Of a stretch of 64,000 nucleotides of DNA, positions 55,365 to 57,501 are shown in pieces. A program made the position numbers and the translations under genes. Within the stretch, counting starts at the first letter, position 1. Each line of letters starts with the position of its first letter. The stretch lies in assembly GCA_963772655.1 (NCBI GenBank), contig CAVYYE010000009.1:86343-150342 (forward strand). The letters are read 5' to 3'. This stretch comes from an uncultured delta proteobacterium (GTDB lineage: Bacteria > Myxococcota_A > Polyangia > Haliangiales > Haliangiaceae). The notes below the pieces were generated by a model, which saw only the letters and a list, made by a program, of their open reading frames with translations, was not told the origin of the DNA and searched no databases.

Positions 55365-56255
55365 ATGGCGCCGGTCGCACGTTCCCGCTCGACGCCGCCG
55401 ACACCGAGCGCGCTTTGCGACGCGCAGCACATCGGCGCGCTCGACGGCGAGCCCGCGCGCGCCACGCAGGACATCGCGCCACGGGTCCGCCGCTTCGTCG
55501 TACGACGCGATCGCGGTCGGTGCCGCGTGCCCGGTTGTCGATCCGCCGCCAACCTCGAGCTTCATCACATCGTGCCGCGATCACGCGGTGGCTCGCACGA
55601 GGCGTCCAACCTGATCCAGCTCTGCGATGGTTGCCACACCGCCCATCACCGCGGGCTCATCGACATCGCCGGCACGTCGGACGATCTCGTCGTGACGCGC
55701 CGCCACGTGTTCGGGCCCGCCGAGCTCGAAGACCGTGCCCACGTGGGCGTCGATCCGGACCGCGCTTACGTGGACACCCGCACGATCGACCGCACCCACG
55801 TGGGCGCACGACATCGACCGGGAGTGTTCGATCGCGTCCCGCGAACATCGTTCTCCTCCCCGGCGGCGCCTGCGCTCGCATCAGGCGACTGGCGCTTGTG
55901 GGCCGCGCGACCGAAGACAGCGCGCCGAGGCAAGGCTCGCCTCGAACGCGGCGATGCCAACCGGCGCGGTCCACAAAGCCAGGAGCACGCCACGCGCTCT
56001 GCCAACCGTGTGACTCGATCGCGCCCACGTGGGCGCAAACCGTGTCCGGCGGACAGTGTCCGGACACGCCTCGGACGTCCCGGACACGCGCAAGCTCGCG
56101 AATTCGCAGGTCCGCGCACTGGCCCGAAGGATGCTGAATTGATCGGCATGTTCGCCCTCGTCATTCGTCGCCATCACCTTCAACGCCGTCTCGACCCGAT
56201 CTTCGTCACTTCGATCGCGATCATCGTCGCGGCCGTCGCGCACATCGCGATCTGA
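55365..56255 (+). CDS. HNH endonuclease-domain protein; true 3' end probably much earlier, possibly a decayed pseudogene
   Basis: ...VRRFVVRRDRGRCRVPGCRSAANLELHHIVPRSRGGSHEASNLIQLCDGCHTAHHRG... is a canonical HNH motif. A different frame (track ORF 55196..56137) carries a plausible N-terminal CxxC piece, suggesting a frameshift. The frame stays open to 56255 only because of GC bias, and that stretch contains repeated palindromes, so it is likely noncoding. Confidence 0.35.
   Translation: MAPVARSRSTPPTPSALCDAQHIGALDGEPARATQDIAPRVRRFVVRRDRGRCRVPGCRSAANLELHHIVPRSRGGSHEASNLIQLCDGCHTAHHRGLIDIAGTSDDLVVTRRHVFGPAELEDRAHVGVDPDRAYVDTRTIDRTHVGARHRPGVFDRVPRTSFSSPAAPALASGDWRLWAARPKTARRGKARLERGDANRRGPQSQEHATRSANRVTRSRPRGRKPCPADSVRTRLGRPGHAQAREFAGPRTGPKDAELIGMFALVIRRHHLQRRLDPIFVTSIAIIVAAVAHIAI
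55738..56090 (+). repeat. Cluster of palindromic repeats: three copies of CCCACGTGGGCG (55738-55749, 55795-55806, 56024-56035) and three GTCCGG(C)GGACAC-type palindromes (56043-56087)
   Basis: Seen directly. GCGCCCACGTGGGCGC at 56021-56036 is a perfect 16-bp palindrome. TGTCCGGCGGACA (56043-56055) and GTGTCCGGACAC (56057-56068) are perfect palindromes. Confidence 0.6.
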
Positions 56256-56259
56256 TCGT

Positions 56260-57501
56260 CTACGCGGCTCGCGGCAACCGACCGCGCCAGCTCTCGCACG
56301 CGCCGAGCACGAGCCCGTCGACGACCTGTAATCTCGATCGACAGTAGTGCGAGTTGGTTCCCCACGAATCTGTCGTGGTAGCGAGCTCGCGCGACAGTCG
56401 GCGCAGCCCGGCGGTCGCGAGCTCGGTGGGAGCGACCGCGAGACAGCGCGCCACCTCGTGGCAATGCGCAACGCGGGAAGTGGGGAGTGTGGCGCACGCG
56501 CGTTCGAGCAACTCCGCACCGCGCGGATCGCCGATCGTCGCGAGCGCTCCAGCGAGCACGAGCTGTCGGGAGAGCGGTCGAACATCGGGTTCCCGCCCCT
56601 CGAGCTCGATCAGTTGTGGCGACATCGGCCGATCGCGCTCGACGGACGCGACGACCTCGCGCAGGACCTCGACGAGCTCGAGCCGCCGGAGTGCCACGAC
56701 CAGGTCCTCGAGCGGGGCGAGCATCTGCGGACCCGGCACGTTCACGAGCGCCGCGATCACGTGTTCCGCGAACCGAGTCGCGAGCTCTCCCCGTCCGAAT
56801 TGACTCGCCACGTCGACCGCGCGCGCGTGGAGCCCGAGCGCGTCGAGCATGTCGAGCCGATCGATCGCGTCGACCACGTCCACGAGCAACGACATCGCAG
56901 GACCTTCGGGCAAGGTCAGAAGTGCGTCGAGGCATGCATCGAGGATCGCCGGCTCTCCATCATCCTTCCGAGCGAGTCGCGCCGTGAGTTCGTCGGCGGT
57001 CGTCTCTGCATTCTCGCGGACGAGATCCGGCTGAAACTCGATCCGGGTTAGCCGCTTTTCGGACCAGTCCTTGTTGGCGGGGGGACGATCGTGGCCCTGC
57101 CACAAGATCCACGACGCCTCGCGCAGCCGCGACACCTTGTAATTGAAGATTCGATTTTGCGTGTTCCACTGGTCGACGACCGGTGCGGGCAACGGACCAC
57201 GGTTCGATCGCCCGAGCAACGCTCCGTCGAGGCGCGCGTCGAACGCGGCCGAGAGTGCGGGGTGTACCGAGTCGCGTCCGAGCTCGAGCTCCTCGAACAC
57301 GACATCCGCAGCACGCTTGGCGGATCGAGCACGCTCGGCGAACCCGAGCCGTGCGAACCCGTACGCGAACATGCGCTGGATGTACGAATCCGTCAGCGGA
57401 CGGGGCGCTTCGACCGGCGACGCCCGGTGCGGGGCCAGCGCGACCTCCAGCAGCTCCTCCAGAAGAGCCGCCAGCTCGGTCGTTCCTGCCGCCGCCACCA
57501 C
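56260..57501 (-). CDS. Hypothetical protein (413 aa)
   Basis: Long ORF with normal composition (W, Y, F, K, N, Q present), helical; no recognisable motif. Confidence 0.5.
   Translation of the reverse strand: MVAAAGTTELAALLEELLEVALAPHRASPVEAPRPLTDSYIQRMFAYGFARLGFAERARSAKRAADVVFEELELGRDSVHPALSAAFDARLDGALLGRSNRGPLPAPVVDQWNTQNRIFNYKVSRLREASWILWQGHDRPPANKDWSEKRLTRIEFQPDLVRENAETTADELTARLARKDDGEPAILDACLDALLTLPEGPAMSLLVDVVDAIDRLDMLDALGLHARAVDVASQFGRGELATRFAEHVIAALVNVPGPQMLAPLEDLVVALRRLELVEVLREVVASVERDRPMSPQLIELEGREPDVRPLSRQLVLAGALATIGDPRGAELLERACATLPTSRVAHCHEVARCLAVAPTELATAGLRRLSRELATTTDSWGTNSHYCRSRLQVVDGLVLGACESWRGRLPRAA

Follow-up and report, generated by a model that had tools for sequence, protein, structure and literature searches.

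In a window of 64 kb (the whole stretch of DNA analysed, with a GC content of about 70%) from an uncultured delta proteobacterium of the Haliangiaceae, the palindromic 12-mer CCCACGTGGGCG recurs at positions 55738–56260, next to a gene for an HNH endonuclease. We found that 55274–55838 holds a dead member of the DUF222-HNH-RuvA_C family, a group of multi-copy myxobacterial genes with which the palindrome is closely associated. The results as a whole are probably best explained by regarding the palindromes as pseudogene relics of a cis-acting symmetric site that co-evolves with a selfish nuclease family. As for the region in the window, it is almost certainly pseudogene debris, and its four palindrome copies (referred to as copies 0–3 hereafter; Table 1) are inactive. 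The result for the window is thus deflationary: what has been mis-annotated as the 296-aa protein P0002 is the debris of a broken selfish nuclease gene.

The identity of this gene to the family proteins is 56–64% across 55274–55838, and its blastn alignment with L001, a related locus in which the gene is intact, spans 55283–55841. The frame-corrected translation matches the Pfam HNH domain (PF01844; E = 1.8e-09) and carries the CxxC...HH... motif and the upstream CDAQH/PGC motifs. The HNH domain (approximately 55521–55652) is followed by the first part of a repeat linker, up to ...THVGARHRPGVFDRV. The reading frame changes at about 55408, where one GC unit has been lost from a GCGCGCGC run as compared with L001; this is a classic slippage lesion. 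An assembly error is excluded, because an independent contig from a second assembly of the same strain, L002, which has one single-nucleotide polymorphism and no gap over 1725 nt, shows the same 2-nt deletion. In the upstream direction, tblastn with longer relatives did not find the N-terminal DUF222 part (about 200 aa before GRAK[FY]Q) anywhere in the window, and only about 300 nt lie between the family match and the neighbouring gene. In the downstream direction, hidden Markov models (HMMs) of the family C-terminus, searched for RuvA_C (PF07499) in the six frames of 55800–56300, gave scores no better than those of shuffled sequences. A decayed RuvA_C domain hidden by frameshifts in 55840–56300 was also considered and rejected: the best score obtained with two protein HMMs was 5.2 bits (frame mod3 = 1, approximately 56068–56160), and the shuffled controls had a 95th percentile of 2.4 bits and a maximum of 5.8 bits. 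An nhmmer search with a DNA profile found the palindrome alone and no RuvA_C. From the frameshift and the loss of both ends, it follows that the window gene is a 5′- and 3′-truncated, frameshifted pseudogene. P0002, which was called in a public metagenome annotation from the stop-to-stop open reading frame (ORF) at 55365–56255, is an artefact of the open frame.

A preliminary description of this DNA had presented 55738–56260 as a separate noncoding island downstream of an HNH remnant, possibly left by a selfish element, and had attributed all the ORFs listed there to GC bias. That the neighbouring gene is a remnant was borne out, and the hint of a selfish element also holds, the palindrome being tied to a multi-copy DUF222-HNH family. 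That the island is a separate noncoding unit was not supported: its first 100 nt or so are the linker-coding DNA of the remnant itself. In 55738–55841, the GC content at the third codon position (GC3) in the HNH frame is 0.82–0.90, versus 0.44–0.46 at the low-GC codon position, and the tblastn match to the family protein P0001 extends to 55838, so that the GC-bias explanation does not apply to this part. The GC3 contrast in frame 0 continues to about 55800–55850, and the profile is flat onward to 56260; no coding signal is present in 55842–56260. For copies 1 and 2, the noncoding reading fails because relatives encode a longer HNH protein, a finding that the description itself had counted against that reading.

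As previously described, CCCACGTGGGCG starts at 55738, 55795, and 56024, and one of these copies lies within a perfect 16-bp palindrome, whose true coordinates are 56021–56036. No further exact copy was found in the 64 kb; a fourth, degenerate copy at 55145–55160 had been overlooked. The recurrence amounts to four strand-matches where 0.05 would be expected, a number not reached in any of 100 dinucleotide shuffles. When two mismatches are allowed, the motif in the window is no more frequent than chance predicts, and therefore the motif is not a low-complexity background, an objection that the description had raised against itself. The claim of dense palindromes stands only in part. With three perfect palindromes of at least 12 bp, the island ranks among roughly the upper 3% of 560-nt windows, but such palindromes are common (67 in the 64-kb window). 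The exceptional feature is that a single 12-mer recurs; the palindrome density is not exceptional. The copies in the window have spacings of 57 and 229 nt, with no more than 23 nt in common, and the regular identical repeats of 28–37 nt with unique spacers expected of a CRISPR array are absent.

The copies differ in their relationships to the gene. The HNH reading frame runs through copies 1 and 2 as codons (...ELEDRAHVGVDPDRAYVDTRTIDRTHVGARHRPGVFDRV), and the linker of P0001 that aligns with them reads ...SAHVGVDPIARHVGVDPRDRVHVG...STHVGVDTIDRTHVGARHRSGVFDRV, followed by the RuvA_C domain; copy 2 is orthologous to the IDRTHVGA of this relative. Copy 3 shares 21 of 23 nt (91%; TCGAyCGCrCCCACGTGGGCGCA) with copy 2. 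It starts 229 nt (3n+1) past copy 2, and is thus out of frame, with a stop codon immediately before it. It is translated as LDRAHVGA in the frame of mod3 = 1 and as IAPTWAQ in the frame of mod3 = 2, the latter being similar to the 5′ copies of relatives described below. Either the linker-type or the 5′-type reading may hold; most simply, copy 3 is a former linker repeat or flanking repeat left by decay. Copy 0 and copy 3 have CGATCGCGCCCACGTG in common. In the frame of the 5′ part of the gene (mod3 = 2), copy 0 reads AIAPT*T, which corresponds to the APTWA of the family with a change of TGG to TGA. Its frame and position suggest that copy 0 is the gene's own 5′ copy. If so, the spacing in relatives implies that about 470 nt of DUF222-coding DNA would have been deleted between copy 0 and GRAKYQV.

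The family to which the gene belongs was characterised with 115 homologues of the frame-corrected translation. These come mostly from metagenome-assembled genomes (MAGs) of Myxococcales, Kofleriaceae, and Polyangiales, and many are annotated as HNH plus RuvA_C; the family goes under the protein name 'HNH endonuclease signature motif containing protein'. The homologues are 300–380 aa as called, and full-length members, composed of DUF222, HNH, and RuvA_C, are about 420–500 aa; the member at L022, for example, has DUF222 (PF02720; 29.7 bits versus a cut-off of 24.4) and HNH (PF01844). Between HNH and RuvA_C, the relatives carry one to six (A/T/S)HVG peptides in an otherwise unalignable linker. 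In the AlphaFold model of P0001, this linker (residues 194–288) has a predicted local distance difference test score (pLDDT) below 50 and is predicted to be disordered, and the HNH domain and the three-helix C-terminus are confident. The best structural match of the HNH domain is EcoKMcrA (6ghc; 29% identity, root-mean-square deviation of 2.1 Å, 66 columns), and that of the C-terminal domain is RuvA domain III in the RuvAB-Holliday-junction structure (7pbm_H; 43% identity, template-modelling score of 0.80 by target); all the Foldseek E-values for these domains exceed 0.001, since each match concerns a small domain only.

The family is present in several copies per genome in MAGs of Kofleriaceae and Haliangiales, and several MAGs contain at least 6–8 copies, many of them at contig ends. 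The paralogue units are 1.8–2.3 kb long and 78–95% identical, and the likeness breaks down in the linker, the length of which is hypervariable among close relatives, with indels ending at repeats. The length difference of 176 nt between L001 and the window is likewise bounded by HVGVD repeats. In the MAG DP_38, a conserved, promoter- or operator-like box, TGGCAATTGTTGGCA-N10-20-TTGACGCG (in L003, at about 4215–4260), forms the start of all the units (L003, L010, L023, L035, and L048), and their end is close to the stop codon; they have sharp boundaries, unrelated flanks, and no terminal inverted repeats. A truncated family remnant, consisting of linker repeats and a decayed start of RuvA_C, was also observed at 2786–3550 of L028, 1 kb upstream of an intact member, which encodes 494 aa (4482–5966). 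Debris composed of a linker and a tail, similar to that in the window, seems to be a common fate of the family genes.

Several features of the palindrome indicate that its conservation very probably lies at the DNA level and is not simply that of a peptide, and that it is a signature of the family. The codon choice was examined at 87 linker HVG sites from 80 family loci, using one genome per species. GCC CAC GTG GGC is its own reverse complement, and AHVG is thus read on both strands. The Ala before HVG is encoded by GCC at 56 of 63 sites and by GCG at none, whereas GCG accounts for 55% of the other Ala codons in the same genes. The Val of HVG is GTG in 90% (49% in the background), and the His is CAC in 98% (70% in the background). 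Where Ser or Thr precedes HVG, the Gly codon shifts too: TCCCACGTGGGA occurs seven times and ACCCACGTGGGT six times, so that Ser is paired with GGA and Thr with GGT. The 12-mers GCCCACGTGGGC, TCCCACGTGGGA, and ACCCACGTGGGT are each a perfect palindrome, and 70 of the 80 family loci contain the signature palindrome N-GCCCACGTGGGC-N′.

The symmetry extends beyond the four codons. Among 194 unique sites, the bases at ±6 are complementary in 167 (126.7 expected) and those at ±7 in 148 (78.6 expected); the pairs at ±7 are C-G (92), G-C (41), and T-A (15), and the signal is weaker at ±8 and absent at ±9. When the permutation test was repeated with one site per locus, p was below 0.0002 at both ±6 and ±7. 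The site can be expressed as a symmetric N-G-CCCACGTGGG-C-N′ of 14 bp (sometimes 16 bp), in which the core is invariant and the outer pairs vary yet remain complementary. Six genome-specific symmetric versions were found: CGCCCACGTGGGCG, the most common, GGCCCACGTGGGCC, GTCCCACGTGGGAC, GACCCACGTGGGTC, TACCCACGTGGGTA, and TGCCCACGTGGGCA. The centre is ACGT in 112 of the 155 GCCC-N4-GGGC sites within family units; being conserved, it lacks the freedom expected of a hairpin loop. This symmetry pattern fits a co-evolving symmetric reader or a concerted evolution under a constraint of palindromy, and it is not a proof of base-pairing.

The same DNA is also read in another way. Near the 5′ end of many family ORFs, the palindrome occurs in a second frame and gives (A/V/G)PTW(A/T/D), between EDAV..E and LDW; copies of the APTWA type were also found at this end in P0051, P0082, and P0035. 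In GTCCCACGTGGGAC at the 5′ end, which reads G-P-T-W-D, both outer pairs are changed together, with two amino-acid changes. Of 201 sites, 96 fall outside the family ORF, and 84 of the 86 linker sites are in phase 0. The AHVG within RuvA_C was considered as a protein-only control and failed as such, because 12 of the 19 are themselves encoded by a perfect palindrome.

The distribution of the motif was examined in 597 kb of fetched loci, of which 250 kb were counted as family units and 347 kb as flanks. The family loci were fetched with three peptide patterns, all of which are broken or altered in the window copy, and the window's own genome is therefore not recoverable in this way; dispersal was judged on the 64-kb window and the flanks of family loci. 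Nearly all of the CCCACGTGGG hits are located between about −2.3 and +1.3 kb from a family match. The ACGT-centred sites number 112 in the units and 2 in the flanks, an enrichment of about 78-fold.

Some of the sites form arrays. In L022 (Kofleriaceae MAG SMAG_U4851), inverted tandem arrays of a repeat of about 150 nt containing GACCCACGTGGGTC bracket the family gene, at 3800–4321 and 5697–6170, with 86-nt arms that are 90% complementary. One array lies no more than about 10 nt from the stop codon of the gene, and the other lies just upstream of an AT-rich, promoter-like stretch; the repeat also contains a long GCGCTGTCA...TGACAGCGC hairpin. The L022 unit resembles a cassette bounded by long inverted repeats. 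Inverted flanking arrays, of 284 and 229 nt, occur in L057. In addition, L085 (1–800), L089 (1–360), L108 (1800–2700), and L130 (200–540) each have 5–10 palindromes in tandem, noncoding and often at contig ends, with spacings (47/55, 47/48, 91–94, and 43–134 nt, respectively) that do not keep to multiples of 3; these four contigs have no detectable family gene. In the reverse test, in which metagenome contigs were scanned for the 16-mer GCGCCCACGTGGGCGC, 120 contigs were returned; in 13 of them, a family gene was detectable, and the palindrome occupied its N-terminal or linker position. GCGCCCACGTGGGCGC was also observed in CRISPR-like arrays with a period of 65 or 61 nt (L177, 19–230; L129, 2286–2362; L084, 747–820); this is a coincidental sharing of a stable palindrome by unrelated organisms.

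Table 1 Features of the window in and around the HNH remnant
Feature	Positions	Strand	Remarks
Perfect inverted repeat, 15-bp stem GTCCGAGTTGGACGT / 3-nt loop GCG / ACGTCCAACTCGGAC	55075–55107		Unique in the window
Palindrome copy 0, degenerate, GCGCCCACGTGAACGC	55145–55160		Upstream of the HNH gene
HNH-family pseudogene, 5′ segment	55274–55408	+	Frame mod3 = 2, GRAKYQVAVTVCERCQQGW...; tblastn, P0001 aa 46–90
HNH-family pseudogene, 3′ segment	55401–55838	+	Frame mod3 = 0; tblastn, P0001 aa 89–295
−2 frameshift in (GC)n run	55405–55412	+	Relative to intact L001
Palindrome copy 1, GCCCACGTGGGC	55737–55748		Reads R-A-H-V-G in the frame of the gene
Palindrome copy 2, GCACCCACGTGGGCGC	55792–55807		Reads R-T-H-V-G-A; central 10 bp perfect
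Unassigned decayed or noncoding DNA	55842–56020		No coding periodicity, RuvA_C trace, or family-locus similarity
Palindrome copy 3, perfect 16-mer GCGCCCACGTGGGCGC	56021–56036		Out of the frame of the gene
GTCCGG hairpin cluster, outer 9-bp stem CGTGTCCGG/CCGGACACG around GTGTCCGGACAC	56041–56088		Local
35-codon ORF, tail of the 296-aa frame	56148–56255	+	Flat GC3; relatives only from the same strain

The remaining part of the island (55842–56260) is probably decayed or intergenic DNA. Neither coding periodicity nor family similarity was found in 56089–56259, and when 55842–56300 and 54973–55282 were compared with 200 fetched loci (blastn and tblastx), the palindrome plus about 7 nt was the most that was matched. 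Terminal inverted repeats around the remnant were sought and rejected, since the left flank (55060–55175) aligns with the reverse complement of the right flank (56005–56110) solely at the palindrome. Among the three GTCCGG-type palindromes that had been called perfect, only GTGTCCGGACAC (56056–56067) is a perfect, even palindrome; TGTCCG-G-CGGACA (56043–55) and GTCC-C-GGAC (56077–85) are short inverted repeats with an unpaired central base. The fold of this cluster is moderately more stable than those of shuffled sequences (z = −1.8 for the plus strand and −2.3 for the minus strand), and no counterpart exists in the 200 other loci. A consensus scan for an intrinsic terminator at 56040–56100 was negative, there being no T run, and its sole hit was at 55168–55183. 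No promoter or terminator consensus was found in the island and no sigma-70-like promoter in 54800–56600, and Rfam 15 gave nothing relevant at E ≤ 1 for the window positions 54500–57000 or for 3500–6500 of L022. The lower-GC stretch (a dip to 0.63–0.65) and the 35-codon ORF are present as previously described. The related loci contain no counterpart of this ORF either. The GTCCGG hairpins and the ORF are incidental, and are unsupported as features of a gene or of the family.

Around the remnant, the perfect inverted repeat at 55075–55107 sits between a divergent trypsin-like gene (54049–54972, minus strand) and the HNH remnant. Its DNA fold has −21.6 kcal/mol (z = −5.4), and it is not homologous to the right-hand hairpins. 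The trypsin-like gene contains a short CCG/CCGCCA tandem repeat at 54215–54253, probably a Pro/Gly-rich low-complexity segment. On the other side, an ORF of 413 aa (56260–57501, minus strand) converges on the island; it has a coding-like GC3 and a faint DMP19 hit. No homologue of it was found among 5.8 billion proteins, and consequently no related locus was fetched by synteny. An antisense ORF of 234 aa (56347–57051, plus strand) lies in its codon phase, and either strand may code. Further downstream, 1.7 kb from the island, a ParA-sized ORF (57915–58736, plus strand) is followed by ParB (58723–59637, plus strand) with ParB_N, HTH_ParB, and ParB_C domains, and the GC content dips to 50% at 57700–57900, ahead of this pair. 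The locus may be near the chromosomal origin region.

The explanations that compete with a symmetric site co-evolving with the nuclease family concern the level at which the palindrome would be maintained. If (A/T)HVG were a functional peptide of the linker or of the RuvA_C helix, the palindromy would be a consequence of codon preference and duplication. AHVG does occupy a fixed position in the RuvA_C-like domain of one subfamily (AVDEACAHVG...LIREALRRCP), and the phase of the linker sites and their evident tandem duplication agree with this idea. It leaves unexplained, however, why GCG is never used for the Ala despite being the majority codon, why S+GGA and T+GGT go together, why the N-terminal copies of the identical DNA give APTWA or GPTWD, why the motif is also present in noncoding flanking arrays and in arrays with a spacing other than a multiple of 3, and why the symmetry reaches ±7, past the four codons. 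We therefore consider a purely protein-level repeat to be improbable. A selection on RNA hairpins, in mRNA stability, attenuation, or termination, with the GTCCGG cluster as a terminator between convergent genes, seems still less probable. GCCC-ACGU-GGGC can make a tetraloop hairpin, and the right-hand cluster, with z of about −2, is indeed located between convergent ORFs; but the sense strand shows no excess of G.U over C.A, the would-be loop is invariant, single motif hairpins are no more stably folded than their shuffles, neither a T tract nor an Rfam family is present, and the GTCCGG motif is absent from all the related loci.

The preliminary description had also suggested a binding array for a regulator and a REP/MITE-like element (repetitive extragenic palindromic sequence or miniature inverted-repeat transposable element), and neither suggestion fared well. 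For an array of live operators bound by a dimeric regulator of neighbouring genes, the perfect symmetry and the invariant core are as expected of a dimer site, and one copy (55145) is located upstream. Nevertheless, the copies lie within or behind a dead gene, which is the gene that the array would serve, and not ahead of a live one, no sigma-70-like promoter accompanies them, the remaining 63 kb, in which the promoters of real genes are included, are devoid of the motif, and most of the copies in relatives are intragenic. This possibility is extremely slight. A dispersed palindromic element that landed near or inside the gene, as the in-frame Rickettsia palindromic elements do, is very unlikely as well. 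The palindromic core and the 150–284-nt unit arrays, tandem and inverted, that flank some family genes would suit such an element, as would the noncoding arrays on the four contigs with no detectable family gene; against this, there are no copies elsewhere in the 64 kb, the 347 kb of flanks contain about two sites, all in-frame occurrences are in one gene family, and no transposase partner was seen. A somewhat larger, still small probability is assigned to a functionless mutational by-product, in which template switching would repeatedly make a GC-rich quasi-palindrome in a slippage-prone linker perfect, and gene conversion among paralogues would keep it uniform. The palindrome is uniform within a genome and different between genomes, the linker is hypervariable with indels ending at repeats, and the window frameshift is itself a slippage event, all of which accord with this process; it offers no explanation for the retention of the core across Kofleriaceae, Haliangiales, and other Myxococcota, for the three positions in the unit (N-terminus, linker/RuvA_C, and flanks), or for the conserved unpaired centre ACGT.

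We thus return to the cis-acting symmetric site. A symmetric (dimeric) protein would recognise the palindrome as a duplex-DNA target, and the most plausible candidate would be the family nuclease. That the palindrome is the site of the family's own DUF222-HNH protein is a tentative proposal, to which we give somewhat less than an even chance. The site may serve in recombination or gene conversion, possibly coupled to RuvB, or in autoregulation. Tandem sites in the tolerant, disordered linker may drive its expansion and contraction, which would explain the fast changes in linker length, such as the above-mentioned 176 nt by which L001 and the window differ. In a fuller model, which is doubtful as a whole, the nuclease would be a partner of palindromes acting in cis in the linker, the N-terminus, and the flanking arrays. 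The protein dimer would recognise and perhaps cut or synapse the palindromes, and its RuvA-domain-III tail would recruit RuvB, leading to branch migration and recombination. These steps would drive the multiplication of the units, together with gene conversion and the expansion of the linker.

Several observations weigh against a co-evolving site and its reader. As 10 of the 80 family loci have no motif, the motif is not indispensable. In the VAR_4 Myxococcales MAG (L005, L008, and L016), the linkers have APVG, with the centre CCGT, in place of AHVG, and the AHVG within RuvA_C uses GCT, not GCC; the perfect palindrome has apparently disappeared from this lineage. Apart from the 13 contigs with a family gene, the contigs returned by the motif-first scan are mostly single background hits in high-GC DNA, with a few CRISPR-like repeats. 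The variation of the outer pairs is almost wholly between genomes, which means that independent compensatory events are few (about 5–6) and that concerted evolution of the repeats contributes; moreover, even in the absence of selection, palindromes could become perfect when quasi-palindromes are corrected through template switching.

The family can be compared with several known systems. In the searchable literature, which is incomplete, we found no description of the 12-mer in bacteria or of a fusion of HNH with RuvA domain III, and the pairing of the palindrome with the nuclease is provisionally regarded as undescribed. EcoKMcrA and RuvA domain III are the best structural matches of the P0001 domains, as stated above, but the family has neither the N-terminal modified-cytosine reader of McrA nor domains I and II of RuvA, and its nuclease activity is only predicted. 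Rickettsia palindromic elements, reportedly described by Ogata et al. in 2000, are in-frame palindromic repeats inside ORFs. They resemble the present case in that in-frame palindromes are placed where the fold is undisturbed, here in a linker predicted to be disordered; they differ in being 100–150 bp long and in occurring in many unrelated genes, whereas the present site has a 14-bp core and is found in one family and its flanks. As a clean example of DNA-level selection behind an ordinary-looking peptide repeat, this family matters for the interpretation of repeat-rich linkers and codon bias.

Parallels are also found in the REP and REPIN sequences with their REP-associated tyrosine transposases (RAYTs, TnpA-REP) and in the REP13E12 elements of Mycobacterium tuberculosis and other Actinobacteria. 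The organisation of REPtrons and the recognition of REPs have been described (PMC8266576, PMC3116915). Here too, a nuclease gene is accompanied by lineage-specific palindromes that co-vary with the lineage, and inverted flanking repeats exist in some genomes (L022). However, the enzyme is an HNH protein and not an HUH/Y1 (IS200/IS605-like) transposase, the family is multi-copy whereas RAYTs are single-copy, and the palindromes are confined to the units, many of them in frame inside the gene, with no extragenic dispersal in the loci tested. Furthermore, the hairpin of a REP is imperfect and bears a GTAG/CGTC tag (PMC3733652), whereas the palindrome of the myxobacterial site is perfect and its centre is conserved. 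The REP13E12 elements share with the myxobacterial family a core of DUF222 and HNH, a multi-copy state, and a repeat-like behaviour in assemblies. REP13E12 copies serve as attB sites for phiRv1. What is additional in the myxobacterial family is a linker of disordered repeats, a C-terminus similar to RuvA domain III, and the CCCACGTGGG palindrome. REP13E12 (DUF222-HNH) is listed among the repetitive elements of M. tuberculosis (PMC10589994, citing Gordon et al. 1999); such repeats have been catalogued since 1999 without a mechanism, and a cognate, genome-specific site provides a testable hypothesis of recognition for them. If the partnership between the nuclease and the palindrome is true, it would be an HNH-based analogue of the REP-RAYT system and the first handle on the function of REP13E12/DUF222-HNH.

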